Both the position numbers and the translations under genes were made by a program. Shown piece by piece: positions 25,321 to 64,000 of a DNA stretch of 64,000 nt (the stretch's first letter is position 1; each line of letters begins with the position of its first letter). This DNA comes from Balanoglossus misakiensis (taxonomy: Eukaryota; Animalia; Hemichordata), in NCBI GenBank assembly GCA_040954595.2, contig CM082595.2:8042317-8106316 (forward strand), read 5' to 3'. Below the pieces are notes generated by a model. The model had not been told where the DNA came from. It saw nothing but the letters and a program-made list of their open reading frames with translations, and did no database searches.

Positions 25321-25422
25321 GTGGACTGTCTTAAATGGTCATCATTAGGCTGTGCAGGAGGGGGAGAAGACCTTGGACCCTATGTTAAAGACCCTTGCGG
25401 CCCCGTCAAGTACCTTTTTCTG
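25321..25422 (+). ncRNA. Putative non-coding exon B3 (102 nt), diverged
   Basis: tatttgattcacag| acceptor, |gtaacc donor; ~27-bp complementarity to A3. Confidence 0.55.
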
Positions 25423-29318: not shown

Positions 29319-29444
29319 TTAAATGATTTCTTCTTATCATTGTTTTTTTATCAATGATGATGACTTGATCTAATCAGTTTTTTAAAATAATTTCATTCTT
29401 TTTTTACATTAGGTTCATTGGTAACACTGCTGCTAGAGGGAGTG

Positions 29445-31996: not shown

Positions 31997-34900
31997 AATC
32001 ACTCAAAATTAATAGGCAGGATACTGTCCACTCTGGCCTGGTTACTGTCTGGCCTGGTTAATGTTGACGCAAAGGTTGACTCCACCAAACACTCAAAATT
32101 AATGGACAGGATACTGTCCACTCTGGCCTGGTTACAGTGTGCTCTGGTTAATGTTGACGCAAAGGTTGTCCACCAAACACTCAAAATTAATGGACAGGAT
32201 ACTGTCCACTCTGGCCTGGTTACTATCTGGCCTAGTTAATGTTGACGCAAAGGTTGACCCCACCAAACACTCGAAATTAATGGGCAGCATACTGTCCACT
32301 CTGGCCTGGTTACTATCTGGCCTGGTTAATGTTGACGCAAAGGTTGACCCCACCAGACACTCAAAATTAATGGACAGGATACTGTCGACTCTGGCCTGGT
32401 TACTATCTGGCCTGGTTAATGTTGACGCAAAGGTTGACCCCACCAGACACTCAAAATTAATGGACAGGATACTGTCGACTCTGGCCTGGTTACTGTCTGG
32501 CCTGGTTAATGTTGACGCAAAGGTTGACCCCACCAAACACTCGAAATTAATGGGCAGAATACTGTCCACTCTCTGCCTGGTTACTTTCAGGCCGGGTTAA
32601 TGTTGACGCAAAGGTTGACCCAACCAAACACTCGAAATTAATGGGCAGGATACTGTCCACTCTAGCCGTGTTACTGTCTGGCCTGGTTAATGTTGACGCA
32701 ACGGTTGACCCCACCAAACACTCGAAATTAATGGGCAGAAAACTGTCCACTCTCAGCCTGGTTACTGTCTGGCCTGGTTAATGTTGACGCAAAGGTTGAC
32801 CCAACCAAACACTCGAAATTAATGGGCAGAATACTGTCCACTCTGGACATGTTACTGTCTGGCCTGGTTAATGTTGACGCAAAGGTTGACCCCACCAAAC
32901 ACTCGAAATTAATGGGCAGAATACTGTCCACTCTGGCCTGGTTACTGTGTGCTCTGGTTAATGTTGACGCAAAGGTTGACCCCACCAAACACTCGAAATT
33001 AATGGGCAGAATACTGTCCACTCTGGCCTGGTTACTGTCTTGCCTGGTTAATGTTGACGCAAAGGTTGACCCCACCAAACACTCGAAATTAATGGGCAGA
33101 ATACTGTCCACTCTGGCCTTGTTACTGTCTGGCCTTGTTAATGTTGACGCAAAGGTTGACCCCACCAAACACTCGAAATTAATGGGCAGAACACTGTCCA
33201 ATCTCTGCCTGGTTACTGTCTGGCCTGGTTAATGTTGACGCAACGGTTGACCCCACAAAACACTCGAAATTAATGGGCAGGATACTGTCCACTCTGGCCT
33301 TGTTACTGTCTGGCCTGGTTAATGTTGACGCAAAGGTTGACCCCACCAAACACTTGAAATTAATGGGCAGAATACTGTCCAATCTCCGCCTGGTTACTGT
33401 CTGGCCAGGTTAATGTTGACGCAACGGTTGACCCCACCAAACACTCGAAATTAATGGGCAGGATACTGTCCACTCTGGCCTTGTTACTGTCTGGCCTGGT
33501 TAATGTTGACGCAAAGGTTGACCCCACCAAACACTCGAAATTAATGGGCAGAATACTGTCCAATCTCCGCCTGGTTACTGTCTGGCCTGGTTAATGTTGA
33601 CGCAACGGTTGACCCCACCAAACACTCGAAATTAATGGGCAGGATACTGTCCACTCTGGCCCTGTTACTGTCTGGCCTGGTTAATGTTGACGCAAAGGTT
33701 GACCCCACCAAACACTTGAAATTAATGGGCAGAATACTGTCCAATCTCCGCCTGGTTACTTTCAGGCCTGGTTAATGTTGACGCAAAGGTTGACCCAACC
33801 AAACACTCGAAATTAATAGGCAGAATACTGTCCACTCTCCGCCTGGTTACTGTCTGGCCTGGTTAATGTTGACGCAACGGTTGACCCCACCAAACACTCG
33901 AAATTAATGGGCGGAATACTGTCCACTCTCTGCCTGGTTACTTTCAGGCCAGGTTAATGTTGACGCAAAGGTTGACCCCACCAAACACTCGAAATTAATG
34001 GGCAGGATACTGTCCACTCTGGCCGTGTTACTGTCAGGCCTGGTTAATGTTGACGCAACGGTTGACCCCACCAAACACTCGAAATTAATGGGCAGAATAC
34101 TGTCCACTCTCCGCCTGGTTACTGTCTGGCCTGGTTAATGTTGACGCAACGGTTGACCCCACCAAACACTCGAAATTAATGGGCAGAATACTGTCCACTC
34201 TCTGCCTGGTTACTTTCAGGCCAGGTTAATGTTGACGCAAAGGTTGACCCCACCAAACACTCGAAATTAATGGGCAGGATACTGTCCACTCTGGCCGTGT
34301 TACTGTCAGGCCTGGTTAATGTTGACGCAACGGTTGACCCCACCAAACACTCGAAATTAATGGGCAGAATACTGTCCACTCTCCGCCTGGTTACTGTCTG
34401 GCCTGGTTAATGTTGAGGCAAAGGTTGACCCAACCAAACACTCGAAATTAATTGGCAGAATACTGTCCACTCTGGCCTTGTTACTGTCTGGCCTGGTTAA
34501 TGTTGACGCAAAGGTTGACCCCACCAAACACACAAAATTAATGGGCAGCATACTGTCCACTCTGGCCTGGTTATTGTGTGCTGTGGTTAATGTTGACAAA
34601 CAGGTTGACCCCACTAAACACTCAAAATAAATTGGCAGCATACTGTCCACTCTTGCCTGGTTACTGTGTGCCCTGGATAATGTTGACGCAAAGGTTAACC
34701 CCTACCAAACACTCAAAATTAATGGGCAGAATACTGTCCACTTTGGCCTGGTTAATGTGTGCTCTGGTTAATGTTGACACAAAGGTTGACCCCTACCAAA
34801 CACTCAAAATTAATGGGCAGCATACTGTCCACTCTGGCCTTGTTACTGTGTGCTCTGGTTAATGTTGACAAACAGGTTGACCCCACCAAACACTCAAAAT

Positions 34901-35890
34901 TAATGGGCAGAATACTGTCCACTTTGGCCTGGTTAATGTGTGCTCTGGTTAATGTTGACGCAAAGGTTGACCCCTACCAAACACTCAAAATTAATGGGCA
35001 GCATACTGTCCACTCTGGCCTTGTTACTGTGTGCTCTGGTTAATGTTGACACAAAGGTTGACCCCACCAAACACTCAAAATTAATGGGCAGCATACTGTC
35101 CACTCTGGCCTGGTTACTGTGTGCTCTGGTTAATGTTGACACAAAGGTTGACCCCACAAAACACTCAAAATTAATGGGCAACATACTGTCCACTCTGGCC
35201 TGGTTACTGTGTGCTCTGGTTAATGTTGACGCAAAGGTTGACCCCACAAAACACTCAAAATTAATGGGCAACATACTGTCCACTCTGGCCTGGTTACTGT
35301 GTGCTCTGGTTAATGTTGACGCAAAGGTTGACCCCACCAAACACTCAAAATTAATGGGCAGCATACTGTACACTCTGGCCTGGTTACTGTGTGCTCTGGT
35401 TAATGTTGACGCAAAGGTTGACCCCACCAAACACTCAAAATTAATGGGCAGCATACTGTCCACTCTGGCCTGGTTACTGTGTGCTCTGGTTAATGTTGAC
35501 GCAAAGGTTGACCCCACCAAACACTCAAAATAAATGGGCAGCATACTGTCCACTCTTGCCTGGTTGCTGTGTGCTCTGGTTAATGTTGACGCACAGGTTG
35601 TCCCCACCAAACACTCAAAATTAATGGGCAACATACTGTCCACTCTGGCCTGGTTACTGTGTGCTCTGGTTAATGTTGACGCAAAGGTTGACCCCACCAA
35701 TCACTCAAAATTAATGGGCAGCATACTGTCCACTCTGGCCTGGTTACTGTGTGCTCTGGTTAATGTTGACGGAAAGGTTGACCCCACCAAACACTCAAAA
35801 TTAATGGGCAGCATACTGTCCACTCTGGCCTGGTTACTGTGTGCTCTGGTTAATTTTGACGCAAAGGTTGACCCCACCAAACACTCAAAA
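31997..35890. repeat. 90/91-bp satellite array, ~43 copies
   Basis: Unit aaacactc(a/g)aaattaatgggcag.atactgtccactctggcctggttactgt.tg..ctggttaatgttgacgcaaaggttgaccccacc; it produces the 30-aa periodic ORFs on both strands. Confidence 0.98.
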
Positions 35891-42320: not shown

Positions 42321-45300
42321 AGGTATGGGAAAGAAGAGATCGAACGTAAAAGTGAGCAAGGGAGTGGGTGTGTCCAAGTGTTGTTTCCAAAAATGTTGCA
42401 AGTTTGAAGATGGGCCAATGACAATTCAAAATCGAAATGCATACACAATTAGGTGAGCAGGATCCTATTAGAATGAAAAGGTATTCGATCTGAACCATGC
42501 AGAGTATTCTCGTTAATTGTGTTGAAACTTTAACCGAGAATCAGTGTTTTGGTCACTTTTCATTTGCAGATGCGTACGCAAGTTGAGGCGTTGTACTAGT
42601 GTTGAAAAATCTTCACCATCGTTATGTATAGTATAATGTAAAGTTTGATAGGTATTATTTTTCCCGCTGAATATTTGATGAAATGTTCGATATCATTTTT
42701 CAAGATTTCATGAAACTACGCAGAGCCGTCGTAGCGGGCGCCGTACGGGCACCTGTGCAACATGATACGCATACACTGACGTTTTTTTGGAACAAAACAC
42801 ACAAAATAAAGGAAGTCGAAGACATACCGCCCATAGAAATTTTTAACTGCTAATCAAACAAAAGTATCAAAATGTATCGTTAAAATGTTTGTAATTTATA
42901 AACACGGTGTTCGTTGGGTCAAAACTGTACCATCAGACTATGTACAAAAACGGCAATAAAACGTTGAAATTTGATGTATCCTGTGATTATAAGTCCGACT
43001 TTGTAGATTCTACACCAGCAGGCAGAATGAAAAACATCTTATTTCACACTAAACTTATAATCGAAACTTTATGATAATGAACTGGGCTTCAATAGTAACA
43101 ATTCAAAGACAGATTTACTGCGCGAAAGCTATAACTTTGTAGTTTTAGTTACAAAAACAAAGCTTGTTCGAAAACGACTTTTAATGAATGTCTACTTTTT
43201 GTCCGGTAAATTTTCCAGTTGGCCTACTACTTTCAAAATTTAAATGAATACAGAAATGGAAGCATGAGTTTCACATTTTAGAGAATTTGAACGAACAGTG
43301 AGAAAGGGTGACAACAACAACAACTTGTAGAAATTATGGCTTTAGTCGTTTTATATTGAAATTTATGTTTCGTTTGTAGTGGAGGCTGGTCGTTTACGCC
43401 AAACGTTTTTTTATGTTACACGCGGTTCAGAAATAGGTTAGGCGAATTAGATTTGTTTTGTTCATATTATTCTAAATCAAAGGAGTATGCGATAAATTAC
43501 ACCACGGAAACATGTTTGCGATTGGAAAAGAGGAGCTTATCATACATGCAACGCCTGTATGCCACTGCGCTATTGCTGTATTGTTCTCAGAGCGAAGATT
43601 AAGACAGAGTATTTTCACATGTGAGAATAGATAATTTTAGAACGTGTGCCGAGAGACGCCCACTACAGTTTTCTCTTCACGGCAAAGATCGAGAAATACA
43701 CGAAAAATGATGTTTGAATAGACCAAGACCGATAAAAAGTAATGTAAAATCACATTATTTTGTGGAATGAAATCAAAATTCGCTCATCACACTGAAGTCA
43801 GCCAGCCACAACTTGCAACATTTGTCGCGTTATCAAGAGAGAGTTGTAGCAGGCGCCGTGTGAGCACGCGCAAGTTGGTTGTCCTATTCCTGGCAAACTG
43901 TGTTAGGATGTCATCGAAATTCCCCTTTATCGTCCACAATTCGACCTGAGTTAATAATCGAGTTAAAAACTGAGCTGATTCTAAAAAAAATGTATCCGGA
44001 AACCAGCGACATATCGTTTTGAGTTGACAGCAGCGAAAAGAAAGTTAGTGGTCAGGGGTTTGAAGTACGTCGGGTTACCGGAAATGTCTTTTTTTTCTTA
44101 GCATAATATTCTATTTTTGTTTTCAAAACATTAGTAGCCATCTTAGTTCTATTTTTGACACTTTCATTGGAATGCTTCGCATACAACCATGCTTAGGTAT
44201 TAAGATATGTCGTCTGGTGTGTGTTCTTCTGAATGTTATTTCACGGAAACTACCTCAACGGGACATAGAAATAGGTAATGTTCACGAAGCAAAGTGATGG
44301 CTGCTATCGTGCCTTCGTTCACATTCCGAACAATGTAGCGTTCTGTTGATCCTTCAACTGCGGTTGCAGTGCCGAATGTTTATGTTTAGCGCCCTCACTG
44401 TCTGGAGTATGCATCCATGATGAAGCAAGTAGGACAGTCTTGTACAGTCTATCAAGTGCAGTTTTTATATGACTGAATAGATTCTGGTGAAGTGAAACAA
44501 CATTTGCGCTTTGAGAATTCTGTTAGAGAGGAAATGATGGAACTGTTTGGTATTGAAATCATGATCTTTTGTATATTAATGTTCTTGCTAGTGTATTTGA
44601 GTAATAGAAATAAAATGAATATAACTGTCCAAAATATTACTGCATATTCTGTAGCGCACAAAAGTTCTAAAAATTGAAACTTTTCATTGCTTTTTTTTCC
44701 ATGTTTTCTGTTCATCAAGAAAAAGTGGACAGAAGTTGGTAAAAACCAAAACTTTCACACTAGTATGTTTAACATCCGGGCAAAATTATCTTTAAAATGA
44801 GAAACATGACACTTTACAATCTGTCCTGTACAATTGTCATCAAGATTTGCGATTGATCATATACTTCTTTCCGTTTTTGCTATGTACAAAGAAAATCTGG
44901 ATAGAAATTGGAGAAAACAAACGACTTTGAACAGTTCAATTTGTACATCAGGCGAAAACTATCAAAAATGGTAGATTTACAGATAATCTTAGGAGTTGAT
45001 TTGAAATAATGTATCCTTTTTTAATCAAAAGTCATATCAAATAAGGTCATATTAGTATTATTTTTATTCTTTAATTGACTGAGGTACCAGAATTTTCTGT
45101 TACCAATACCGCTGATGATACATCTTACACTGAGTTAGGTGTTTTCAACTAATTGTTAAATCTGTAGCTATTTAGCAATCTTTTTTCCAGTCTTTTTGAC
45201 AATTTTCTAGTAAGCCTTGATATTTTGAATGGTTTTGTTGTTAAATGATTAAAAATTATGTTCCCATTAAAAGACTTGGACTAAAATAGTCAGTTTTTAC

Positions 45301-45600
45301 AAAGTTTTATATTAATTAAACTGTTTTGACAAGTGCTCTACATATCAGACAAAATTGTTTGTTAATCTTTCAAATGTTAAATTTTATCAAAAGCCAAATT
45401 TAAAATGGTAAAAACATGCTTCTTGAGGGTCTTTTTTCAGGTCATACACACAATAAGAAAACTGTATTTTGATGCATAGATGCTGTTTTTTTTTAAATAT
45501 ATATTTGATGAACAGAGAATATCATTTGTAAAAAATTGGCCATTATCAAGTGAAACTATGTATTACTATATGTTACTTTTGGAAGCTTGTGCAAAATTTT

Positions 45601-48600
45601 TTAGGGCACAAGCCCAGCAGGCTTGTGCCCTATTGTTTTTACTGGAGTTTTTAGGGCACAAGCCCAGCAGGCTTGTGCCCTATTGTTTTTACTGGAGTTT
45701 TGAGGGCCCAAGCCCAGCAGGCTTGGGCCCTATTTAGGGCCCAAGCCAAGCAGGCTTGGGCCCTATTGGTATTACTGGCTTTTTTCTTCTTCTTCTTCAG
45801 TCGTTTTTTCGGCCAGCTAGATCTGGAAAACGGCCAAACCTACCAATTTCAAACTTGGCACAATGGTGCAGGCCTATGAGAGCATGATCTGTACCCTTGT
45901 GAATGTTTAATTATTCACGTGACCTAATGACCATATATGGGCAAAATTTTCAAATCGGCCTTATTTGCATATGAATGGAGATATCAAAATTCTGTTAAGA
46001 TACTTTGTGGGCCATATGGCCAGGGTTCTACATGCCAAATGTCAAGGCCATAGGCCATGTCAATTTTGAGAAGAAGATTTTTAAGTATTATTTTTCATAT
46101 TTTTTCGCCCAAGCCATCGGCCTATACTTTACATAGTAAAGCTATGACCACATATTATTTTGGATAAATATGCATACATATCTCAAAATCTGTAAGGCCG
46201 ATCATCTCCAACTTTGGTGTGCAGCTAGCCTAGCATTTGTCGATAATTTTAAGCGAAAAAAAATAATATGAAAAATCGACCGATTTTTTTATATTAATTT
46301 CTTTATTAAATTTATACCTTTACTTATACCTCTATGGTTAAGCTATGTCCATGTCTTATTGTGGAATTCTGGTCTGTGCAATAGTCCTGTACAGTGACTG
46401 TCTATTGGTCAGTGAGTACAATGGCACCAAAATAAAAGCCAACATTTTAGGCTCACCTGTAACACCTGCTTAACTCATTAATTATGTGCATACCTAATTC
46501 TGGGCTAACTAAGAGGGCTATAGGTTTCGTTCTTGTGGGGCATGGACCAGTAAAGGGTCAAAATTTCTTGCCCGAATTTTGGGTGACCTCAGGTGACCTT
46601 TGACCTACTTTCCTATATCTCGGCATCTAGAGCAGGTACAGACTTGGCGTTTGGAGGGTTGGGACTAAAATTGAAAAGCCAAAATGGGGGTCACCTGTGA
46701 CACCTGCCTATCTCATTAATTATGTGCATACCTAATTCCAGGCTAACCAATAGGGCTATAGGTTTGGTTTTTGTTGAACATGGACCAGTATAGGGTCAAC
46801 ATTTCTTGCCCAAATTTTGCATGACCTCAGGTGACCTTTGACCTGCTTTACCATTTCTTGGCATCCAGAGCAGGTACAGACTTGGCGTTTGGAGGGTTGG
46901 GACTAAAATTGAAAAGCCAAAATTAGGGGTCACCTGTGACACCTGCCTACCTCATTAATTATGTGCATACCTAATTCCAGGCTAACCAATAGGGCTATAG
47001 GTTTGGTTTTTGTTGAACATGGACCAGTATAGGGTCAAAATTTCTAACCCAAATTTTGCATGACCTCAGGTGACCTTTGACCTACTTTACCGTATTTTGG
47101 CATCCATAGAAGATATGCTTATTGCTATTTTGCTATGTGCTATGTTGGCTTGGGCCTGCTATTGCTGCTTGCAGCTATATTGTTTTTACTGGAGTTTTTT
47201 AGGGCACAAGCCCAGCAGGCTTGTGCCCTATTGTTTTTACTGGAGTTTTTCTTCTTCTTCTTCTTGTGCCGTTTTTTTCGTCAAGTACATCTTGAAAATG
47301 GCTGAACCTACAAATCTCAAACTTGGCACAATGGTGCAGGCCAATAAGAGCATGAGCTGTACCCTTGTGAATGTTTAATAAGTCATGTGACCTGACGACC
47401 ATATTTGGGCAAAAATTTTCAAATCGGCCTTATTTGCATATGCATGGAGATATCAAAATTCTTTTAGCAACTTTTGCTGACCATGGGGTCATTGTCCTAC
47501 ATGCCAAATTTCAAGGCCATAGGCCATGTCAATTTTGAGAAGAAGATTTTTAAGTATTATTTTTCATATTTTTCGCCCAAGCCATGGGCCTATACGTTAC
47601 ATAGTAAAGCTATGACCACATATTATTTTGGATAAATATGCATACATATCTCAAAATCATCTCAAACTTTGGTGTGCAGCTAGCCTAGCATTTGTCAATC
47701 ATTTTAAGCGAAAAAAAATAATATGAAAAATCGACCGATTTTTTTATATTAATGTTTTAAATTAAATTTATACCTTTTTACTTAAAGGTATACGGTCACC
47801 TCCAATTTACATATCGCCATATATAGTTGAAATGGCGTATTTGAGTGTTCTAAAGAACGCTTTATGTTCGCGTGTGCCACCCACTGAAAATATGTGATTG
47901 GTTAGATCTCGATTTACCATGGTAACTGTGGCTAAATTTGTATAGGTGACCGTATACCTTTAATATACCTCTATAGTTAAGCTATGTACACGTCTTAGTG
48001 TGGAATTCTGGTCTGTGCAACGGTCCTGTACAGTGACTGTCTATTGGGCAATGAGCACAATGGGACCAAAATAACAGGCAAAATTTCGGGCTCACCTGTA
48101 ACACCTGCTTAACTAATGAATTATGTGCATACCTAATTCCGGGCTAACTAATAGGCCTAGAGGTTTTGTTCTTGTGGGACATGGACCAGTATAGGGTCAA
48201 AATTTCTTGCCCAAATTTTGGGTGACCTCAGGTGACCTTTCACCTACTTTACCATATCTTGGCATCCAGAGCAGGTACAAACCTGGCGCTTGCAGGGTTG
48301 GGACTAAAATTGAAAAGCCAGAATGGGGGTCACCTGTGACACCTGCATATCTCATTAATTATGTGCATACCTCATTCCAGGCTAACCAATAGGGCTATAG
48401 GTTTGGTATTTGTTGAACATGGATCAGTATAGGGTCAACATTTCTTGCCCAAATTTTGCATGACCTCAGGTGACCTTTGGCCTACTTAACCAGATCTTGG
48501 CATCCATAGCAGGTACAGACATGGCGTTTGGAGGGTTGGGACTAAAATTGAAAAGCCAAAATTGGGGGTCACCTGTGACACCTGCCTACCTCATTAATTA

Positions 48601-51600
48601 TGTGCATACCTAATTCCAGGCTAACCTATAGGGCTATAGGTTTGGTTTTTGTTGAACATGGACCAGTATAGTGTCAAAATTTCTTGCCCAAATTTTGCAT
48701 GACCTCAGGTGACCTTTGACCTACTTTTCCATATCTTGGCATCCAGAGCAGATATGCTTATTGCTATGTTGCTATGTGCTATGTTGGCTTGGGCCCGCTA
48801 TTGCTGCTTGCAGCTATATTTAGGGCCCAAGCCCAGCAGGCTTGGGCCCTATTGGTATTACTGGGGTTTTTACGGGCCCAAGCCAAGCCAGGCTTGGGCC
48901 CGTATTGGTTTCGTTGGGGTTTTTCTTTCTTTCTTTCTTTATTCTTGGTTCATTTCTTTCGCGCTCTAGATCTCAGACACCGCTGCAGGTACAGTTCTCA
49001 AACTTGCTACAGTGGTCAAGGTCAATGAGTAGATGTGCAGTGACTTGTGAATACTTAATTAGTCACGTGACATGGCGGCCATATTGGATTTTCTGAAAAA
49101 TGCAAATCTCAGATCTCAGAAACTACAAGTCAGATCGACTTCAGATTTGGCGTGCTGGTAGTATACCCTCTGCCCATCATTTTTGTAATTGGATATTTTG
49201 CTGTCAATGTTGCAGTTTTTTTGCTACAGTTGTTTTTCTGAAATCTGGTCAAAATTTCAAAAATCTTCTTCTCCAGAACCGGTGATAACCGAGACACGCC
49301 GTTTGGGTTATGTGGTCACCTAACTGATGTCTATCAAGTTTGCGAAGATCATTGTGATTGGTCAAAGATTATGGCGGCCATATTGAATTTTCGAAAAACC
49401 ATAGTAAAACTTCAAAAATCTTCTCCTCCAGAACGGGCGATAACCGAGTCACAAGATTTGGTGTGTGTGGTCATTAAACGGATGTCTATCAAGTTTGCGA
49501 AGGGGAATGTGATTGGTTGAAGATTATGGCGGCCATATTGGATTTTGTGAAAAACGATTAAAAAGTAAAAATTCCTTTTCTAGCCTAAAAATTGATAGCA
49601 CAGAAATTCTTTTTATGGATATGAATCATCATATGACAAGAATAAGCTATAAATATTTTAGTAATTTTGGCAATGACCTTTGACCTTCTTTTGACGAATC
49701 ATTTTTCTGCATATCTAATTCCAGGCTAACCAATAGGGCTATAAGTTTGGTTTTTGATGTATGTGGATTTGTATGTGATCAAAAAATTTTGCTACTTTTC
49801 ATGACCCCTTTGACCTCTGGTGACCTCATTAAATATGCATATACCTAATTACAGATGAACCAATAGACCTAGAGGTTTTGTTTTTGTTATACATGGACCA
49901 GTATGGGGTCAAAATATTTTGCCCAAATGTTGGGTGACCTCGGGTGACTTTTGACCTACTTAACACTATATTAGCATCAGATCAGATAATAGAGCTTGGG
50001 CCCGGACAATGCTGCTTGCAGCTTTAATTCTTCTACTTCTTCTTCTTCTTCTTCTTGTGTCGTTTTTTTGTCCAGCTACATCTTGAAAACGGCTGAACCT
50101 ACAAATCTCACATTTGGCACAATGGTGCAGGCCTATGAGAGCTTGTGCAGTACCCTTGTGAATGTGTAATTAGTCATGTGACCTGATGACCATATATGGG
50201 CAAAATTTTCAAATCGGCCTTATTTGCATATGCATGAAGATATCAAAATTCTTTTAGCAACTTTTACGGACCATATGGCCAGGGTTCTACATGCCAAATA
50301 TCAAAGCCATAGGCCATGTCAATTTTGAGAAGAAGATTTTTAAGTATTATTTTTCATATTTTTCGACCAAGCCATGGGCCTATACTTTCCATAGTTAAGC
50401 TAAGACCACATATTATTTTGGATAAATATGCAAACATATCTCAAAATCTGTTGGGCCGATCAAGTCCAAATTTGCTGTGCAGCTAGCCTAGCATTTATCA
50501 ATCATTTTAAGCAGAAAAAATTAATATGAAAAATAGACCGATTTTTTTATATTAATTTTTTTATTAAATTTATCCCTTTTCTTATACCTCTATGGTTAAG
50601 CTATGTCCATGTCTTATTGTGGAATTCTGCTCTGTGCAATAGTCCTGTACAGTGACTGTCTATTGGTCAGTGAGCACAATGGCACCAAAATAAAAGGCAA
50701 AATTTTAGGCTCACCTGTAACACCTGCTTAACTCATTAATTATGTGCATACCTAATTCTGGGCTAACTAAGAGGGCTAGAGGTTTCGTTCTTGTGGGACA
50801 TGGACCAGTATAGGGTCAAAATTTCTTGCCCAAATTTTGCTTGACCTCAGGTGACCTTTGACCTACTTTACCAGATCTTGGCATCCAGAGCAGGTACAGA
50901 CTTGGCGTTTGGAGGGTTAGGACTTAAATTGAAAAGCCAAAATGGGGGTCACCTGTGACACCTGTATATCTCATCAATTATGTGCATACCTAATTCCAGG
51001 CTAACCAATAGGGCTATAGGTTTGGTTTTTGTTGAACATGGACCAGTATAGGTTCAAAATTTCTTGCCCAAATTTTGCTTGACCTCAGGTGACCTTTGAC
51101 CTACTTTACCAGATCTTGGCATCCAGAGCAGGTACAGACTTGGCGTTTGGAGGGTTAGGACTAAAATTGAAAAGGCAAAATGGGGGTCACCTGTGACACC
51201 TGTATATCTCATTAATATGTGCATACCTAATTCCAGGCTAACCAATAGGGCTATAGGTTTGGTTTTTGTTGAACATGGACCAGTATAGGTTCAAAATTTC
51301 TTGCCCAAATTTTGCTTGTCCTCGGGTGACCTTTGACCTACTTTACCAGATCTCGGCATCCAGAGCAGGTACAGACTTGGTGTTTGGAGGGTTGGGACTA
51401 AAGTTGAAAAGCCAAAATGGGGTTCACCTGTGACACCTGCATATCTCATTAATTATGTGCATACCTAATTCCAGGCTAACCAATAGGGCTAGAGGCTTCG
51501 TGCTTGTGGGACATGGACCAGTATGGGGTTAAAAATAATTTGCCCAAATTTTAGGTGACCTCAGGTGACCTTTGACCTACTTTACCATATCTTGGCATCC

Positions 51601-54600
51601 AGAGCAGATATGCTTATTGCTATGTTGCTATGTGCTATGTTGGCTTGGGCCCGCTATTGCTGCTTGCAGCTATATTCTTCTTCTTCTTCTTCTTCTTGTG
51701 CCGTTTTTTTCGTCAAGTAGATCTTGAAATCGGCTGAACCTACAAATCTAAAACTTGGCACAATGGTGCAGGCCTATGAGAGCTTGAGCTGTACCCTTGT
51801 GAATGTTTAATTAGTCATGTGACCTGATGACCATATATGGGCAAAATTTTCAAATCGGCCTTATTTGCATATGCATGAAGATATCAAAATTCTTTTAGCA
51901 ACTTTTACGGACCATATGGCCAGGGTTCTACATGCCAAATGTCAAGGCCATAGGCCTTGTCAGTTTTGAGAAGAAGATGTTTAAGTATTATTTTTCATAT
52001 TTTTCACCCAAGCCATGGGCCTATACTTTCCATAGTAAAGCTATGACCACATACTATTTTGGATAAATATGCATACATATCTCAAAATCTGTTAGGCCAA
52101 TCATCTCCAACTTTGGTGTGCAGCTAGCCTAGCATATGTCAATAATTTTAAGCGAAAAAAAATAATATGAAAAATCGACCGATTTTTTTATATTAATTTT
52201 TTTATTAAATTTATACCTTTACTTATACCTCTATGGTTAAGCTATGTCCATGTCTTATTGTGGAATTCTGGTTTGTGCAATAGTCCTGTACAGTGACTGT
52301 CTATTGGTCAGTGAGCACAATGGCACCAAAATAAAAGGCACAATTTTAGGCTCACCTGTAACACCTGCTTAACTCATTAATTATGTGCATACCTAATTCT
52401 GGGTTAACTAAGAGGGCTATAGGTTTCGTTCTTGTGGGACATGGACCAGTATAGGGTCAAAATTTCTTGCCCAAATTTTGGGTGACCTCAGGCGACCTTT
52501 GACCTACTTGCCTATATTTCGGCATCTAGAGCAGGTACAGACTTGGTGTTTGGAGGTTTGGGACTAAAATTGAAAAGCCAAAATGGGGGTCACCTGTGAC
52601 ACCTGCATATCTCATTAATTATGTGCATACCTAATTCCAGGCTAACCAATAGGGCTATAGGTTTGGTTTTTGTTGCACATAAACCAGTATAGGGTCAAAA
52701 TTTCTTGCCCAAATTGTGCATGACCTCAGGTGACCTTTGACCTACTTTACCATATCTCGGCATCCAGAGCAGGTACAGACTTGGCGTTTGGAGGGTTGGG
52801 ACTAAAATTGAAAAGCCAAAATTGGGGGTCACCTGTGACACCTACCTACCTCATTAATTATGTGCTTACCTAACTCCAGGCTAACCAATAGGGCTATAGG
52901 TTTGGTTTTTGTTGAACATTGACCAGTATAGGGTCAAAATTTCTTGCCCAAATTTTGTATGACCTCAGGTGACCTTTGACCTACTTTACCATATCTTGGC
53001 ATCCAGAGCAGGTACAGACTTGGCGTTTGGAGGGTTGGGACTAAAATTGAAAAGGCAACACTGGGGGTCACCTGTGACACCCGCCTACCTCATTAATTAT
53101 GTGCATACCTAATTCCAGGCTAACCAATAGGGTTATAGGTTTGGTTTTTGTTGAACATGGACCAGTATAGGGTCAAAATTTCTTGCCCAAATTTTGCATG
53201 AACACAGGTGACCTTTGACCTACTTTACCATATCTTGGCATCCAGAGCAGATATGCTTATTGCTATGTTGCTATGTGCTATGTTGGCTTGGGCCCGCTAT
53301 TGCTGCTTGCAGCTATATTTACGGGCCCAAGCCAAGCCAGGCTTGGGCCCGTATTGGTTTCGTTGGGGTTTTTTACGGGCCCAAGCCAAGCCAGGCTTGG
53401 GCCCGTATTGGTTTCGTTGGAATTTTACTTTCTTTCTTTCTTTCTTTCTTTCTTTATTCTTGTGTCAATTCTTTGACCCACGAGATCTCAGACACCGCTG
53501 CAGGTACACTTCTGAAACTTGCTACAGTGGTCAAGGTCAATGAGTAGTCGTGCATTGAACCCTTGAATTTTTAATTAGTCACGTGACCTGGCGGCCATCT
53601 TGGATTTTCTGAAAAAATGCAAATCTCAGATCTCAGAAACTACAAGTCAGATCGACTTCAAATTTGGCATGCTGGTAGACTACCTTCTGCCCATCATTTT
53701 TGTAATTGGAAATTATGCTGACAAAGTTGCAGTTTTTTGCTACAATTTTTTTTCTGAAATCTGGCTTAAATTTCAAAAATCTTCTTCTCCAGAACCGGTG
53801 ATAACCGAGACACAGGGTTTGGTGTATGTGGTCACCTAACTGATGTCTATCAAGTTTGCGAAGATCATTGTGATTGGTCGAAGATTATGGCGGCCATATT
53901 GGATTTTCGAAAAACCCTAGTAAAATTTCAAAAATCTTCTTCTCAAGAACCGGCGATAAACGAGTCACAAGATTTGGTGTGTGTGGTCATTAAAAAGATG
54001 TCTATCAAGTTTGCTAAGAAGAATGTGATTGGTCGAAGATTATGGCGGCCATATTGGATTTTGTGAAAAACCATTAAAAAGTAAAAATTCCCTTTCTGGC
54101 CTAAAAATTGATAGCACATAAATTCTTTTTAAGGATATGAATCATCATATGACAAGAATAAGCTATAAATATTTTGGTAATTTTGACAATGACCTTTGAC
54201 CTACTTTTGACGCATCCTTTTTCTGCATATCTAATTCCAGGCTAACCAATAGGGCTATAAGTTTGGTTTTTGATGTATGTGGATTTGTATGTGATCAAAA
54301 AATTTTGATACTTTTCATGACCCCTTTGACCTCTGCTGACCTCATTACATATGCACATACCTAATTACAGATGAACCAATAGACCTAGAGATTTTGTTTT
54401 TGTTATACATGGACCACTATGGGGTCAAAATATTTTGCCCAAATGTTGGGTGACCTCGGGTGACCTTTGACCTACTTTTCCATATCTTGACATCCACAGC
54501 AGATACAGCCTTGGCGTTTGGAGGTATGGGGCCATAATGAAAAGCCAAAGTTTTTGGTCACCTGTGACACCTGCTTAACTCATTATTTATGTGCATACCT

Positions 54601-57600
54601 AATTACGGGCTAACCAAAAGGGCTAGAGATCTGGTTTTTGTTGAACATGGACCACTATGGGTCAAAATTTTCTGCCCAAATTGTGGGTGACCTCTGGGTG
54701 ACCTTTGACCTACTTAACACTATATCAACACCAAACATAGATATAAACTTGATATTTCATGGGATAAAACACAGCATTATGTTTCTACTCATTAATTATG
54801 TGCATATCTAATAATCAGATCAGATAATAGAGCTTGGGCCCGGACAATGCTGCTTGCAGCTTTAATCTTTCTTTCTTTCTTTCTTTATTCTTGGTTCATT
54901 TCTTTCGCGCTCTAGATCTCAGACACCGCTGCAGGTACAGTTCTCAAACTTGCTACAGTGGTCAAGGACAATGAGTAGATGTGCAGTGACTTGTGAATAC
55001 TTAATTAGTCACGTGACATGGCGGCCATATTGGATTTTCTGAAAAAATGCAAATCTCAGATCTCAGAAACTACAAGTCAGATCGACTTCAGATTTGGCGT
55101 GCTGGTAGTATACCCTCTGCCCATCATTCTTGTAATTGGATATTTTGCTGTCAATGTTGCAGTTTTTTTGCTACAGTTGTTTTTCTGAAATCTGGTCAAA
55201 ATTTCAAAAATCTTCTTCTCCAGAACCAGCGATAACCGAGTCACGCCGTTTGGGTTATGTGGTCACCTAACTGATGTCTATCAAGTTTGCGAAGATCATT
55301 GTGATTGGTCAAAGATTATGGCGGCCATATTGAATTTTCGAAAAACCATAGTAAAACTTCAAAAATCTTCTTCTCCAGAACGGGCGATAACCGAGTCACA
55401 AGATTTGGTGTGTGTGGTCATTAAACGGATGTCTATCAAGTTTGCGAAGGGGAATGTGATTGGTTGAAGATTATGGCGGCCATATTGGATTTTGTGAAAA
55501 ACGATTAAAAAGTAAAAATTCCTTTTCTAGCCTAAAAATTGATAGCACAGAAATTCTTTTTATGGATATGAATCATCATATGACAAGAATAAGCTATAAA
55601 TATTTTGGTAATTTTGGCAATGACCTTTGACCTACTTTTGACGCATCATTTTTCTGCATATCTAATTCCAGGCTAACCTTTAAGGCTATCATTTTGGTTT
55701 TTGATGTATGTGGATTTGTATGTGATCAAAAAATTTTGCTACTTTTCATGACCCCTTTGACCTCTGCTGACCTCATTAAATATGCACATACCTAATTACA
55801 GATGAACCAATAGACCTAGAGGTTTTGTTTTTGTTATACATGGACCAGTATGGGGTCAAAATATTTTGCCCAAATGTTGGGTGACCTCGGGTGACCTTTG
55901 ACCTACTTAACACTATATCAGCATCAGATCAGATAATAGAGCTTGGGCCCGGACAATGCTGCTTGCAGCTTTAATTAGGGCCCAAGCCCAGCAGGCTTGG
56001 GCCCTATTGGTATTACTGGCTTTTTAGGGCCCAAGCCCAGCAGGCTTGGGCCCTATTGGTATTACTGGCTTTTTTTAGGGCCCAAGCCCAGCAGGCTTGG
56101 GCCCTATTGTTTTTACTGGAGTTTTTAGGGCCCAAGCGCATGCAGCGCTTGGGCCCTATTGGTATTATCCTGGTTTTTACGGGCCCAAGCCAAGCCAGGC
56201 TTGGGCCCGTATTGGTTTCGTTGGGGTTTTTCTTTCTTTCTTTCTTTCTTTCTTTCTTTATTCTTGGTTCATTTCTTTCGCGCGCTAGATCTCAGACACC
56301 GCTGCAGGTACAGTTCTCAAACTTGCTACAGTGGTCAAGGTCAATGAGTAGATGTGCAGTGACTTGTGAATACTTAATTAGTCACGTGACATGGCGGCCA
56401 TATTGGATTTTCTGAAAAAATGCAAATCTCAGATCTCAGAAACTACAAGTCAGATCGACTTCAGATTTGGTGTGCTGGTAGTATACCCTCTGCCCATCAT
56501 TTTTGTAATTGGATATTTTGCTGTCAATGTTGCAGTTTTTTTGCTACAGTTGTTTTTCTGAAATCTGGTCAAAATTTCAAAAATCTTCTTCTCCAGAACC
56601 GGCGATAACCGAGTCACGCCGTTTGGGGTATGTGGTCACCTAACTGATGTCTATCAAGTTTGCGAAGATCATTGTGATTGGTCGAAGATTATGGCGGCCA
56701 TATTGGATTTTCGAAAAACCATAGTAAAACTTCAAAAATCTTCTTCTCCAGAACGGGCGATGACTGAGTCACAAGATTTGGTGTGTGTGGTCATTAAACA
56801 GATGTCTATCAAGTTTGCGAAGGGGAATGTGATTGGTCGAAGATTATGGCGGCCATATTGGATTTTGTGAAAAACGATTAAAAAGTAAAAATTCCTTTTC
56901 TAGCCTAAACATTGATAGCACAGAAATTCTTTTTATTGATATGAATCATCATATGACAAGAATAAGCTATAAATATTTTGGTAATTTTGGCAATGACCTT
57001 TGACCTACTTTTGACAAATCATTTTTCTGCATATCTAATTCATGGCTAACCAATGGGGCTATAAGTTTGGTTTTTGATGTATGTGGATTTGTATGTGATC
57101 AAAAAATTTTGCTACTTTTCATGACCCTTTGACCTCTGGTGACCTCATTAAATATGCGCATACCTAATTAATGATGAACCAATAGACCTAGAGGTTTTGT
57201 TTTTGTTATACATGGACCAGTATGGGGTCAAAATATTTTGCCCAAATGTTGGGTGACCTCGGGTGACCTTTGACCTACTTTTGCATATCTTGACATCCAC
57301 ACCACATACAGCCTTGGCGTTTGGAGGTATGGGGCCATAATGAAAAGCCAAAGTTTTGAGTCACCTGTGACACCTGCTTTACTCATTATTTATGTGCATA
57401 CCTAATTCCGGGCTAACCAAAAGGGCTAGATGTCTGGTTTTTGTTTGACATGGACCACTATGGGTCAAAATTTTCTGCCCAAATTTTGGATGACCTCAGA
57501 TGACCTTTGACCTACTTTTGCATATATCGGCATCCAAAGCAGGTACAGCCTTGGCATTTGGAGGTATGGGGCCATAATGAAAAGCCAAAGTTTTGGGTCA

Positions 57601-60600
57601 CCTGTGACACCTGCTTTATGCATTATTTATGTGCATACCTAATTCCGGGCTAACCAAAAGGGCTAGAGGTCTGGTTTTTGTTGGACATGGACCACTGTTG
57701 GTCAAAATTTTCTGCCCAAATTGTGGGTGACCTCTGGGTGACCTTTGACCTACTTAACACTATATCAACAACAAACATAGATATAACCTTGATATTTCAT
57801 GGGGATAAAACACAGCATTATGTTTCAACTCATTAATTATGTGCATATCTAATAATCAGATCAGATAATAGAGCTTGGGCCCGGACAATGCTGCTTGCAG
57901 CTTTAATTCTTCTTTTTTTTCTTGTGTAGTTTTTTCGGCCAATAGGATCTTGAAAACGGCTGAACCTACAAATTTCAAACTTGGCAAAATGGTGCAGGCC
58001 TATGAGAGCTGGTGCAGTACCCTTGTGAATGTTTAATTAGTCATGTGACCTGTTGACCATATATGGGCAAAGTTTTCAAATGGGCCTAATTTGCATATGA
58101 ATTGAGATATCAAAATTCTGTTAGGATACTTTCTGGACCATGTGGTCAGTATCCAACATACCAAATATCAAGGCTGTGGGCCAAGTCTATTTTGAGAAGA
58201 AGACTTTTAAATATTATTAGTTTTTCATATTTTTGGACCAAGCCAAGGGCCTATACTTTCTATAGTTAAGCTATGACGCTATGTCCACGTCTGTGCAATG
58301 GTCCTGTACAGTGACTGTCTATTGGCCCGTGAGCAGAATGGGACCAAAATAAAAGGCAAAATTTTGGGCTCACCTGTAACACCTGCTTAACTCATTAATT
58401 ATGTGCATACCTAATTTTGGGCTAACTAATATGGCTAGATGTTTTGTTCTTGTGGAACCTGGACCAGTATGGGGTCAAAAAATTTTGCCCAAATTTTGGG
58501 TGACCTCAGGTGACCTTTGACCTACTTTCCTATATCTCTGCATTCAGAGCAGGTACAGACTTGGCGTTTGGAGGGTTGGGACTAAAATCGAAAAGCCAAA
58601 ATTGGGGGTCACCTGTGACACCTGCTTATCTCATTAATTATGTGCATACCTAATTCAGGGATAACTAATAGGGCTAGAGGTTTTGTTCTTATGGCACATG
58701 GACCAGTATAGGGTCAAAATTTTTTGCCCAAATTTTGGGTGACCTCAGGTGACCTTTGACCTACTTAACCATATCTCAGCATCCAGAGCAGGTACAGCCT
58801 TGGCGTTTGGAGGGATGGGTTGAAAATGAAAAGTGAAATTATTAAGTCACCTGTAACACCTGCTGAACTCATTAATTATGTGCATACCTTATTCCAGGCT
58901 AACCAATAGGGCTAGAGGTTTGATTTTTGTTGAACCTGGACCAGTATGGGGTCAAAATTTCTTGCCCATCTTTTGGGTGACGACATATGACCTTTGACCT
59001 TCGGCTTAAGCTTGGGCCCGTCATCGCTGCTTGCAGCTATATTTCTTTTTCTTCTTCTTCTTCTTCTTCTTCTGTCGTTTTTTCGGCCAGGTAGATCTGG
59101 AAAACGGCTAAACCTACCAATTTCAAACTTGGCACAATGGTGCAGGTCAATGAGAGCTAGTGCAGTACCCTTGTGAATGTTTAATTAGTCATGTGACCTG
59201 ATGACCATATATGGGCAAAATTTTCAAATTGGCCTTATTTGCATATGAATGGACATATCAAAATTCTTTTAGCAAGTTTTACGGACCATATGGCCAGGGT
59301 TCTACATGCCAAATGTCAAGGCCATAGGCCATGTCAATTTTGATAAGAAGATTTTTAAGTATTATTTTTCATATTTTTCGCCCAAGCCATGGGCCTATAC
59401 CTTACATAGTAAAGCTATGAACACATATTATTTTGGATAAATATGCATACATATCTCAAAATCTGTAAGGCCGATCATCTCCAACTTTGGTGTGCAGCAA
59501 GCCTAGCATTTGTCAATAATTTTAAGCAAAAAAAAATAATATGAAAAATCGACCGATTTTTTTATATTAATTTTTTTATTAAATTTATACCTTTACTTAT
59601 ACCTCTATGGTTAAGCTATGTCCATGACTTATTGTGGAATTCTGGTCAGTGCAATAGTCCTGTACAGTGAGTGTCTATTGGTCAGTGAGCACAATGGCAC
59701 CAAAAAAAAAAGGCAAAATTTTAGGCTCACCTGTAACACCTGCTTAACTCATTAATTATGTGCATACCTAATTCTGGGCTAACTAAGAGGGCTAGAGGTT
59801 TCGTTCTTGTGGGGCATGGACCAGTATAGGGTCAAAATTTCTTGCCCAAATTTGGGGTGACCTCAGGTGACCTTTGACCTACTTTCCTATATCTCGGCAT
59901 CCAGAGCAGGTACAGACTTGGCGTTTGGAGGGTTGGGACTAAAGTTGAAAAGCCAAAATAGGGGTCACCTGTGACACCTGCATATCTCATTAATTATGTG
60001 CATACCTAATTCCAGGCTAACCAATAGGGCTATAGGTTTGGTTTTTGTTGAACGTGGACCAGTATAGGGTCAAAATTTATTGCCCAAATTTTGCATGACC
60101 TCAGGTGACCTTTGACCTACTTTACCATATCTTGGCATCCAGAGCAGATACAGAATTGGCGTTTGGATGGTTGGGACTAAAATTGAAAAGCCAAATTGGG
60201 GGGTCACCTGTGACACCTGCCTACCTCATTAATTATGTGCATACCTAATTCCAGGCTAACCAATAGGGCTATAGGTTTGGTTTTTGATGAACATGGACCA
60301 GTATAGGGTCAACATTTCTCGCCCAAATTTTGCATGACCTCAGGTGACCTTTGACCTACTTTTCCATATCTTGGCATCCAGAGCAGATATGCTTATTGCT
60401 ATGTTGCTATGTGCTATGTTGGCTTGGGCCCGCCATTGCTGCTTGCAGCTATATTCTTCTACTTCTTCTTCTTTTTCTTCTTCTTCTGTCGTTTTCTTTG
60501 GCGAGGTAGATCTGGAAAACTGCTAAACCTACCAATTTCAAACTTGGCACAATGGTGCAGGCCAATGAGAGCTAGTGGAGTACCCTTGTGAATGTTAAAT

Positions 60601-63600
60601 TAGTCACGTGACCTGATGACCATATATGGGCAAAATTTCCAAATCGGCCTTATTTGCATATGAATGGAGATATCAAAATTCTTTTAGCAACTTTTGCGGA
60701 CCATGTGGTCAGTGTCCTACATGCCAAATGTCAAGGCCATTGGCCATTCCAATTTTGAGAAGAAGATTTTTAAGTATTATTTTTCATATTTTTTACCAAG
60801 CCATGGGCCTATACTTTCCATAGTAAAGCCATGACCACATATTATTTTGGATAAATATGCATACATATCACAAAATCTGTTAGGCCGATCATCTCCAACT
60901 TTGGTGTGCAGCTAGCCTAGCATTTGTCAATAATTTTAAGCGAAAAAAAATAGTATGAAAAATCGACCGATTTTTTTATATTAATTTTTTTATTAAATAA
61001 TACCTTTACTTATACCTCTATGGTTAAGCTATGTCCATGTCTTATTGTGGAATCCTGGTCTGTGCAATAGTCCTGTACAGTGACTGTCTATTGGTCGGTG
61101 AGCACAATGGCACCAAAATAAAAGGCACAATTTTAGGCTCACCTGTAACACCGGCTTAACTCATTAATTATGTGCATACCTAATTCTGGGCTAACTAAGA
61201 GGGCTAGAGGTTTCGTTCTTGTGGGACATGGACCAGTATAGGGTCAAAATTTCTTGCCCAAATTTTGGGTTACCTCAGGTGACCTTTGACCTACTTTCCT
61301 ATATCTTGGCATCCAGAGCAGGTACAGACTTGGCGTATGGAGGGTTGGGACTAAAATTGAAAAGCCAAAATGTGGGTCACCTGTGACACCTGCATATCTC
61401 ATTAATTATGTGCATACCTAATTCCAGGCTAACCAATAGGGCTATAGGTTTGGTTTTTGTTGAACATGGACCAGTATAGGGTCAAAATTTCTTGCCCAAA
61501 TTTTGTATGACCTCAGGTGACCTTTGACCTACTTTACCATATCTTGGCATCCAGAGTAGGTACAGAATTGGCATTTGGAGGGTTGGGACTAAAATTGAAA
61601 AGGCAACACTGGGGGTCACCTGTGACACCTGCCTACCTCATTAATTATGTGCATACCTAATTCCAGGGTAACCGATAGGGTTATAGGTTTGTTTTTTGTT
61701 GAACATGGACCAGTATAGGGTCAAAATTTCTTGCCCAAATTTTGCATGACCTCAGGTGACCTTTGACCTACTTAACCATATCTTGGCATCCAGAGTAGGT
61801 ACAGAATTGGCGTTTGGAGGGTTGGGACTAAAATTGAAAAGGCAACACTGGGGGTCACCTGTGACACCTGCCTACCTCATTAATTATGTACATACCTAAT
61901 TTCAGGCTAACCAATAGGGCTATAGGTTTGGTTTTTGTTGAACATGGACCAGTATAGGGTCAAAATTTCTTGCCCAAATTTTGCATGACCTCAGGTGACC
62001 TTTGACCTACTTAACCATATCTTGGCATCCAGAGCAGATATGCTTATTGCTATGTTGCTATGTGCTATGTTGGCTTGGGCCCGCTATTGCTGCTTGCAGC
62101 TATATTTTTAGGGCCCAAGCGCAAGCAAGCGCTTGGGCCCTATTGGTTTCGTTGGGGTTTTTCTGTCTTTCTTTCTTCTTTCTTTCTTTCTTTATTCTTG
62201 TGTCAATTCTTTGTCGCTCTAGATCTCAGAGACCACTGCAGGTACACTTCTGAAACTTGCTACAGTGGTCAAGGTCAATGAGTAGTCGTGCATTGAACCC
62301 TTGAATTTTTAATTAGTCACATGACCTGGCGGCCATCTTGGATTTTCTGAAAAAATGCAAATCTCAGATCTCAGAAACTACAAGTCAGATCGACTTCAAA
62401 TTTGGCGTGCAGGTAGACTACCTTCTGCCCATCATTTTTGTAATTGGAAATTATGCTGTCAATGTTGCAGTTTTTTTGCTACAATTTTTTTTCTGAAATC
62501 TGGTCAAAATTTCAAAAATCTTCTTCTCCAGAACCGGTGATAACCGAGACACGGGGTTTGGTGTATGTGGTCACCTAACTGATGTCTATCAACTTTGCGA
62601 AGATCATTGTGATTGGTCGAAGATTATGGCGGCCATATTGGATTTTCGAAAAACCATAGTAAAACTCAAAAAATCTTCTTCTCCAGAACGGGCGATAACT
62701 GAGTCGCAAGATTCGGGGAGTTTGGTCACTTCACTGATGTCTATCAAGTTTGCAAAGAGCATTGTGATTGGTCGAAGATTATGGCGGCCATATTGGATTT
62801 TGTAAAAAGCAGTGAAAAATTGAAATTCCTTTTCCTAGTCTAAAAATTGATAGCATACAAACTCTTTTATGGATATCAATCGTCATGTGACTAAAATATG
62901 TTACAATTTTTTGGCGATTTTTCACATGACCTTTGACCTACTTTTCACACGTTATTATTTTTGCATATCTATTTCCAGGCTAACCTATAGGGCTAGACGT
63001 TTGGTTTTTGATGCATGTGGATTAGTGTGTGATCAAAATATTTTGCTACTTTTCATGACCCCTTTGACCTCAGCTGACCTCATTAATTATGTACATAGCT
63101 AATTACAGGCGGACCAATAGAGCTAGAGGTTTGGTTTTTGTTGGACATGGACCAGTATGGGATCAAAATTTTTTGCCCAAATGTTGGGTGACCTCTGGTG
63201 ACCTTTGACCTACTTTCGCATATCTCAGCATCCAGAGCAGATACAGCCGTGGCATTTGGTAGGATGGGACCAAAATAAACAGCCACATTTTTGGGTCACC
63301 TGTGACACCTGCTGACCTTATTAAATATGCACATACCTAATTACAGGCGAACCAATAGAGCTAGAGTTTTGGTTTTTGTTGGACATGGACCAGTATGGGA
63401 TCAAAATTTTTTGCCCAAATGTTGGGTGACCTCTGGTGACCTTTGACCTACTTTCGCATATCTCAGCATCCAGAGCAGATACAGCCGTGGCATTTGGTAG
63501 GATGGGACCAAAATAAACAGCCAAATTTTTGGGTCACCTGTGACACCTGCTGACCTTATTAAATATGCACATACCTAATTACAGGCGAACCAATAGAGCT

Positions 63601-64000
63601 AGAGTTTTGGTTTTTGTTGGACATGGACCAGTATGGGTAAAAAAAAATTGCCCAAATGTTAGGTGACCTCAGCAGTAATACTACACACATCCTTGTTATG
63701 TCATGCGATAATACATCCGATAGAAAATTCTGTTTCTTCTCATTCATACTGTACATATATAATTCAAGATCAGCGCTTGGGCCCGACAATGCTGCTCGCA
63801 GCTTTAATCTTCTACTTCTTCTTCTTTTTCTTCTTCTGTCGTTTTCTTTGGCGAGGTAGATCTGGAAAACTGCTAAACCTAACAATTTCAAACTTGGCAC
63901 AATGGTGCAGGCCAATGAGAGCTAGTGCAGTACCCTTGTGAATGTTAAATTAGTCACGTGACCTGATGACCATATATGGGCAAAATTTCCAAATCGGCCT
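45601..64000 (+). mobile_element. Nested cluster of at least 15 non-autonomous Helentron-like (HINE/DINE-1-type) elements, two main families
   Basis: Each element has a 5' hairpin gggc(c/a)caagc..gcttg(g/t)gccc, a (TTC)n or (TTTC)n tract, a core, ~240-bp internal repeats, a 3' subterminal gcttgggccc and a terminal stem-loop gctgc-tt-gcagc; insertions are in T runs with no TSD. 15 heads and 12 tails lie in the window. Confidence 0.85.
47786..47959. mobile_element. 174-bp MITE flanked by TTAA (Kolobok-like AG...CT ends) inserted in a HINE body
   Basis: Perfect 16-bp TIR aggtatacggtcacct / aggtgaccgtatacct with ttaa on both sides; absent from sister HINE copies. Confidence 0.9.

Follow-up and report, generated by a model that had tools for sequence, protein, structure and literature searches.

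Introduction

The elements reported here are closest in layout to HINE/DINE-1 and the oyster Cg_HINE (PMC4067079, PMC2374699, PMC7492417), and the comparisons below apply to the accessible parts of the sources cited. Those elements carry, as ours do, a 5' subTIR with a complementary inverted repeat, a microsatellite, central tandem repeats and a 3' subTIR, are non-coding and insert at T-rich or TT sites; their 3' subTIR is joined by a palindrome, to which a short, weak stem may correspond here. Unlike the copies described here, which occupy a fixed site in the head of their own family, they are reported as solo, clustered or lying in other repeats, and their terminal T count is variable, whereas a constant gain of two T was found here at the checkable sites. 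Elements of the Helitron2/HLE2 type have asymmetric TIRs of 8-15 bp, of which the 5' TIR lies 0-2 bp from the end, in a hairpin, and the 3' TIR lies 20-30 bp from the end, with TTTT^T/C or T^T as the target (PMC3627910, PMC11417382). The elements here have this layout of the termini and may belong to the subgroup with or to that without an endonuclease domain.

Insertion of such elements into one another has been described before. FoHeli Helitrons, which are HLE2 elements of Fusarium, have inserted shortly after a relative's 5' end, giving stacked 5' termini for which self-insertion has been proposed as the cause, and a three-copy case is given for Metarhizium (PMC5148889). As presented in the accessible text, these cases show a small number of copies, or termini stacked two to three deep, and come without a target rule, whereas the present locus holds 15 copies of three families, nested to a depth of seven at one site, with the inner bodies retained. 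Nested maize Helitrons with multiple termini are canonical Helitron1, for which the text available gives no fixed internal site (PMC3288121), in contrast to the HLE2-type copies and fixed site found here, and nested insertion has been invoked for Paramecium Helitrons (PMC13085455). MITE multimers (PMC5172404) and SaTar arrays (PMC5907723) resemble our locus in preferring their own kind, but the former move by cut-and-paste and the latter are explicitly non-nested. For Xenopus Helitrons, tandem arrays and nested TEs are described, and no case of self-insertion was found in the accessible portion of the report (PMC12001565). A search of open-access full texts returned neither a deep HLE2 stack at a fixed site nor a spacing rule in the portions available. 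Self-insertion is thus already known for Helitrons, and the present locus differs from the cases available in its precise landing spot and its depth.

Target choice and end definition of HLE2 elements are unsettled questions, and the biochemistry cited here concerns the HLE1 element Helraiser. A locus at which parent and insertion are both known allows the cut position relative to the hairpin, the gain of two T and the order of family activity to be measured, and its precise landing spot makes target choice testable. Such a stack also suggests how multi-headed chimeric Helitrons and long HINE/satellite blocks could arise, and repeat annotators will miscount stacks of this kind as fragments. 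The finding does not point to a new gene, host function or element class.

Results and Discussion

Heads, tails and composition of the window

The window, by which we refer to the whole 64,000-nt stretch of DNA analyzed, is repeat-rich (about 33-48% GC in 2-kb bins). A scan of the whole window revealed no long reading frame outside a satellite, no stop-to-stop frame of at least 150 aa was found in the stack, which hence has no coding capacity, and Rfam gave no matches in the window. Motif scans of the entire window on both strands placed 15 heads and 12 tails in 45603-64000. The heads start (first A) at 45603, 45653, 45703, 45736, 47201, 48822, 48872, 53321, 53375, 55977, 56026, 56077, 56127, 56179 and 62110, exactly the set that a first-pass annotation of the window had listed. 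All 12 tails lie on the + strand, and their ends agree to within 1 nt with those given in that annotation (47179, 48818, 50027, 51674, 53317, 54865, 55974, 57906, 59041, 60453, 62104 and 63807); upstream of 45603, the scan found no tail on either strand.

The stack mixes three families, namely A (E3-E6, E10-E12), B (E7-E9, E14, E15) and C (E13), with closed copies of family A being 85-94% alike and those of family B 83-98%. Exact repeats in the stack reach at most 234 bp. The features are as follows (depth refers to the nesting described below):

H1, 45603..45652, + strand: outermost head (hairpin and T-run), its insertion site being a T6 run in unique flank; not closed within the window
H2, 45653..45702, + strand: head like H1, parent of E3, E8 and E10; open at the window end
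E3, 45703..53318, + strand: family A, depth 3; E4 interrupts the head; contains E4, E5 and E6; own body about 51676-53318
E4, 45736..47180, + strand: family A, depth 4, uninterrupted; in TT 3 nt behind the H3 hairpin, the sole exception to the distal T-run
E5, 47201..48819, + strand: family A, depth 4; hairpin changes matched on both arms; contains an unrelated MITE
MITE-like insert in E5, 47782..47963, no strand assigned: 182 bp, 20-nt perfect inverted arms, TTAA at both extremes, likely a target duplication
E6, 48822..51675, + strand: family A, depth 4; contains E7; own body about 50028-51675
E7, 48872..50027, + strand: family B, depth 5, uninterrupted
E8, 53321..55974, + strand: family B, depth 3; contains E9; own body about 54866-55974
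E9, 53375..54865, + strand: family B (second subfamily), depth 4, uninterrupted
E10, 55977..64000, + strand: family A, depth 3; contains E11 and E15; body from about 63808, past the window end
E11, 56026..62105, + strand: family A, depth 4; contains E12; own body about 60455-62105
E12, 56077..60454, + strand: family A, depth 5; contains E13; own body about 59043-60454; head and body types differ
E13, 56127..59042, + strand: third family (C), depth 6; contains E14; own body about 57907-59042; distinct tail
E14, 56179..57906, + strand: family B, depth 7, uninterrupted
E15, 62110..63807, + strand: family B variant, depth 4, uninterrupted; 12-nt inverted repeat of head and tail

Anatomy of the elements

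Each head consists of a hairpin of 13-16 bp, followed after 16-18 nt by a run of 4-6 T and then by a (CTT)n or (CTTT)n microsatellite. The hairpin motif, situated near the 5' end and with a downstream inverted repeat, was matched in all 15 heads, and all four heads that were folded yielded stems of 13-16 bp (z about -5 to -5.8). The bodies are composed of tandem units of 237-239 bp, to which family B adds units of 155 bp. Near the other end, a tail repeat is complementary to the left arm of the head, with 10-12 nt being perfect in 11 of the 12 closed elements; the repeat of E5 has one mismatch and a longest perfect run of 6. The element core ends 23-24 nt after this 3' subterminal repeat. Between this repeat and the end, a short, weak palindrome was seen in the three tails that were folded; its stem of 4 bp is conserved (7 bp when a mismatch within the A tail is allowed), and its stability is no better than that of shuffled sequences (z of -1.25, 1.54 and 0.89). 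Behind a T-run, cores open with A(C)GGG, and they end in ATAT or TTAA, with 2-7 T preceding every one of the 15 heads (one run ends in G) and T following all 12 tails.

Given the hairpin, the complementary 3' repeat, the microsatellite and tandem repeats, the insertion into T-runs and the lack of coding capacity, the elements are likely non-autonomous HLE2 (Helentron/Helitron2-type, HINE) rolling-circle transposons, a membership assigned by anatomy only. Two other classes were considered and rejected. Canonical Helitron1 (HLE1: 5'-TC, CTRR-3', A/T insertion) is ruled out by the A(C)GGG starts, the ATAT or TTAA ends and the T-run sites, and a cut-and-paste MITE by the 3' repeat, which lies 23-24 nt inside the end and is not terminal.

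Nesting and restoration of the parents

When heads are taken as opening and tails as closing brackets, the stack reads H1(H2(H3(H4,H5,H6(H7)),H8(H9),H10(H11(H12(H13(H14))),H15)..., with no underflow and a depth of seven, and H1, H2 and H10 are still unclosed where the window stops, by which point the body of H10 has begun. The last-in-first-out (LIFO) order and the depth of seven claimed in the first-pass annotation were thus reproduced by a stack parse of the scanned heads and tails. Excision from the inside out, which that annotation had offered as a check, cleanly restored all 12 closed elements at 1157-1729 bp. With H4 excised, the two halves of the H3 head rejoin as a head of the H5/H12 type, and a head split in this way requires a real insertion. 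Parent and child often differ in family (A>B, A>C, C>B, and B inside an A-type head), so that the copies came from elsewhere. We hold with high confidence that the stack is made of nested, self-targeted and independent insertions of HINE-like elements.

The shape of the tree is consistent with random growth on existing heads, with a probability of 0.13 for a height of at least 7 and of 0.18 for at most 6 leaves; a preference for the newest head was also considered and is unneeded, since such random growth suffices. That the locus records insertion order holds for parents, which precede their children, but the brackets do not fix the order of siblings; one junction, at which H8 precedes H10, points to a later arrival of the sibling on the left. 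The expectation that inner copies would be closer to consensus was not borne out, as private changes show no gradient with depth: in family A (611 columns), they number 8 in E3 (depth 3), 10 in E12 (depth 5) and 14-25 in the copies at depth 4, and in family B the highest number, 18 of 977, belongs to E14 at depth 7. Given the mixed subfamilies and few copies, which confound it, this comparison neither supports nor refutes an age order.

T counts and the pairing of heads with bodies

For counting T, the core was defined as extending from the first A through four bases past the conserved tail motif, and native T-run lengths (5, 6 and 5) were taken from childless copies, with 1-2 copies for each length and T-runs being mutable. 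The H4 site shows a net gain of two T, and each insertion adds exactly two T at all six checkable sites. At the five remaining checkable parents, among them H3 and H10, each with two children in one T-run, the T totals are exactly those predicted by strict LIFO order; as the constant was derived at the H4 site, only these five sites are true tests. For the two uncheckable sites, H6 and H13, the native run works out at 5 T. Among 28 parses in which one or two heads are orphaned, 27 violate the gain of two T; the only one to pass leaves H2 orphaned, the closure of which lies outside the window. A duplication of TT is excluded for E9 and E15, which have a single T after the tail. As judged from sequence, the end models that would be compatible are a TT-core into T^T, a T-core-T and a 1-nt duplication, which the T count does not distinguish.

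The resemblance between heads and their assigned bodies is a second line of evidence. B-type heads close with family-B bodies in all five cases, as had been claimed, with H8 providing the only non-adjacent test. Other matches noted in the first pass also stood: after restoration, E7 and E8 show 97.9% identity across 1163 columns, the bodies of E10 and E11 are 1.4% apart over 139 columns, and the E15 head and tail have a common 12-nt inverted repeat. The observation that H12 fits its body less neatly was also correct, for the H12 head is of the H3/H5 type and the body groups with those of E4 and E11 (support 84/93, in a tree drawn open). E12 is likely a chimera.

We compared head distances with body distances for the 12960 order-valid assignments of headless bodies (7) to free heads (9). 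Assignments scoring at least as high as LIFO numbered 952 (Pearson) and 2020 (Spearman), which places LIFO in the top 7-16%. The congruence of heads and bodies with LIFO order that had been set as a test is thus present but only moderate, with H12 mismatched. The top-scoring assignments hand the body of E3 to H1 or H2, and all parses weighed by hand retain at least one mismatch of head and body. First-in-first-out pairing, tried separately, ranks 7956 of 12960 and was rejected. As a test of the pairing, we weigh the T count above this concordance.

Landing site of the nested copies

After restoration, 13 of the 14 nested copies lie in a T-run 16-23 nt behind the hairpin of the parent; the exception is H4, in a bare TT 3 nt behind the hairpin and away from the microsatellite. 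For the eight heads that lie directly behind a parent head at its T-run, 21-24 nt separate the first A from the hairpin arm, which under the TT-core reading places the cut 19-22 nt behind the arm. Head windows and element ends account for 28 of the 453 runs of at least four T on both strands of the 12 restored elements; all 14 landings fall in these windows or ends (nominal P near 1e-17, a figure that assumes independent events and disregards the choice of the locus for its striking look). In parents of the H1, H2, H3 and H12 type, a hand count of the two equal T5 runs gives no insertion in the near one, 5-10 nt from the hairpin, and seven in the distal one; runs of T6-T8 at 27-56 nt, and some 30-45 further T-runs in each element, were likewise unused (hand count). 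The integration proposed in the first pass, in the same orientation and in the T-run just 3' of the 5' hairpin of a relative, is supported by the clean excision, the split H3 head, the gain of two T and additional joints in sequencing contigs (see below).

Proposed mechanism and alternative explanations

In the mechanism that we propose, a transposase supplied in trans would home on the hairpin in the head of a resident copy, and each copy would arrive in an event of its own, specific to one strand and probably involving a circular intermediate, as judged from Helitron biology and the HLE1 element Helraiser, in which one strand is moved through circles and the end junction is cleaved precisely (PMC5876387, accessible text). 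The single orientation would follow from the T-run target lying on one strand. The right arm of the hairpin is a copy of the 3' subterminal 10-mer, identically oriented, and the cut lies about 19-22 nt behind this arm, near the 23-24 nt of true ends, so that the head is likely mistaken for an element end and the T-run nicked. A newcomer would spare the hairpin and T-run of its parent and add a head of its own, so that targets would multiply and the stack would feed itself. The fit to an end is imperfect (19-22 as against 23-24 nt) and was examined in this window only: the head cut spacing is 1-5 nt shorter than that of true ends, and the position of the T-run itself constrains the cut. Mistaken ends also predict landings at true tails; no insertion here requires that reading, all four tail-head junctions being equally readable as later arrivals in the T-run of the parent. 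As the cause of landing-site choice, guidance by the hairpin is modestly favored, and we lean, by a similarly slight preference, toward the statement as a whole, namely that HLE2-like copies were nested in one orientation at the T-run through a hairpin-homing transposase acting in trans.

The nesting could also be real and the hairpin irrelevant, with the T-run at the 5' edge of the microsatellite being the best ordinary TTTT^T/C target. This passive reading, a possible one that we consider rather doubtful, draws on the 13 of 14 insertions at the microsatellite-edge run, which is present in every copy and which, in nested chains, still adjoined the microsatellite when hit. It is also in line with what accessible text reports of Helitron2, which inserts between TTTT and T or C (PMC3627910), of HINEs, which favor T-rich sites (PMC4067079), and of plant transposons of another class, which build mixed arrays by microsatellite targeting (PMC5907723). 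However, H4 lies in TT 3 nt from a hairpin and away from the microsatellite, and none of the T6-T8 runs within the tract or immediately 3' to it was ever used. Furthermore, by a hand reading of one case, T^T fits the H8/H10 junction only if H8 came later, into an H2 run already severed from its microsatellite.

Two further explanations question the nesting itself. Heads and bodies might not be true pairs, the stack having arisen from multi-headed chimeras, for which copying would start at an outer head and stop once a tail is reached (a model put forward for Fusarium Helitrons), and from recombination between tandem heads or bodies, so that the parse would be partly accidental. Multi-5'-terminus Helitrons that transpose as units are known (PMC5148889, accessible part), H12 is mismatched, the best-scoring assignments pair the E3 body with H1 or H2, H1 and H2 are near-identical 50-bp tandem copies, and an H2 orphan fits the T count; H1 and H2 may be orphan heads of a multi-headed element. 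Nonetheless, orphaning H6, H8, H10, H11, H12 or H13 violates the T count in all parses tested, the split H3 head demands a real insertion, and multi-headed units themselves presuppose nesting; the explanation is viable for H1 and H2 only and for the stack is improbable. We give still less credence to the block having arisen by rolling-circle concatemerization, by tandem duplication in place or by faulty assembly. Tandem arrays of Helitrons have been described (PMC5876387, PMC4067079, available text), the region is highly repetitive and, among the contigs listed, none spans the 2-kb stretch compared. Concatemers and single crossovers should, by reasoning, yield repeats of head, body and tail rather than runs of heads followed by headless bodies, and the bodies alternate among three families, mostly several percent or more apart. 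Misassembly is unlikely, as the longest exact repeat is 234 bp, and would not be expected to leave an exact T count. Nested insertion at the T-run behind the hairpin is the reading that we retain.

We suggest only tentatively that HLE2 transposases in general choose targets by their own 3' end signal (the subterminal repeat, about 20-24 nt and T), which would amount to a general self-homing rule in animals. If this were true, the 5' hairpin arm with a T-run at that distance would be a built-in landing pad and a self-multiplying safe haven, with deep stacks growing by positive feedback, and stacks would serve as a ledger of HLE2 end chemistry (the gain of two T) and of family chronology.

Sequencing contigs and other sequence comparisons

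Contigs from two runs of one sample were aligned, at 85% likeness, to 44400-46430; another run, X3, contained almost none of the words looked for and was left out. The summed contig depth over the element is roughly 100 to 600 times that of the flank; this is not a copy number, and the excess points to a large element family. Three head-into-head joints, in which a T-run leads onto another head, are found in the contigs and are absent from the window; one is present in both runs at about flank depth and two in one of these runs, X2, only, and their spacing is about 22-23 nt (hand count). They may represent other loci, another allele or a continuation of the same stack. A fourth, low-depth joint was seen in the head region of the contigs, as were five more within the body.

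In metagenomes, the head motif matched at two loci, which were rejected as having short hairpins, unrelated sequence, a match of 28-34 bp and no tail motif. One X2 contig tracks the flank up to 45603 and has 50 further letters, which by our reading of the coordinates lie past the junction and might represent either an unoccupied site or another head.

Possible hairpin constraint

In the two outermost heads of the nested stack, H1 and H2 (45603-45680), and in H5 (47201-47228), the head of the family A element E5, paired changes are present on both hairpin arms, such that pairing is preserved. The 3' repeat of E5, a subterminal tail repeat complementary to the left hairpin arm of the head, however, retains the common form, in contrast to the changed arms of H5. 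As the arm changes are matched while this 3' repeat is unchanged, the data hint that hairpin structure is more constrained than is head-tail pairing.

An 8-nt stretch of the unique flank (45585-45592) matches the hairpin arm of H1 itself. It lies upstream of the insertion that founded the stack, at a distance of 10 nt, and is a single case that may be due to chance.

Related and other repeats in the window

Features considered here, by window position
5298-10212: 1.64-kb unit, three tandem copies, 98-99% identity
5537-5728, 7173-7364 and 8809-8994, minus strand: relatives of the E5 insert, ~78% identity
28665-28693: hairpin arm remnant, then a T8 run
near 29180-29257: match to the 238-bp tandem repeat unit of the stack element bodies, 74-81%
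near 29285-29320: degenerate tail
29445-30063: 50-bp array, 12 copies
31991-35890: 90-bp satellite, 43 copies
47782-47963: MITE-like insert inside E5, 20-nt perfect arms, TTAA at both bounds

The E5 insert, which may be Kolobok- or piggyBac-like, has three relatives elsewhere in the window, all on the minus strand, and one is present in each of the three copies of the 1.64-kb unit.

A single diverged relative of the stack elements occupies 28650-29320, with arm remnant, unit match and degenerate tail as listed; its head T-run contains no insertion.

All six long open frames of the window originate in the 90-bp satellite. Several interspersed repeat pairs, of 66-95% identity and in both orientations, are found at 11227-26566.
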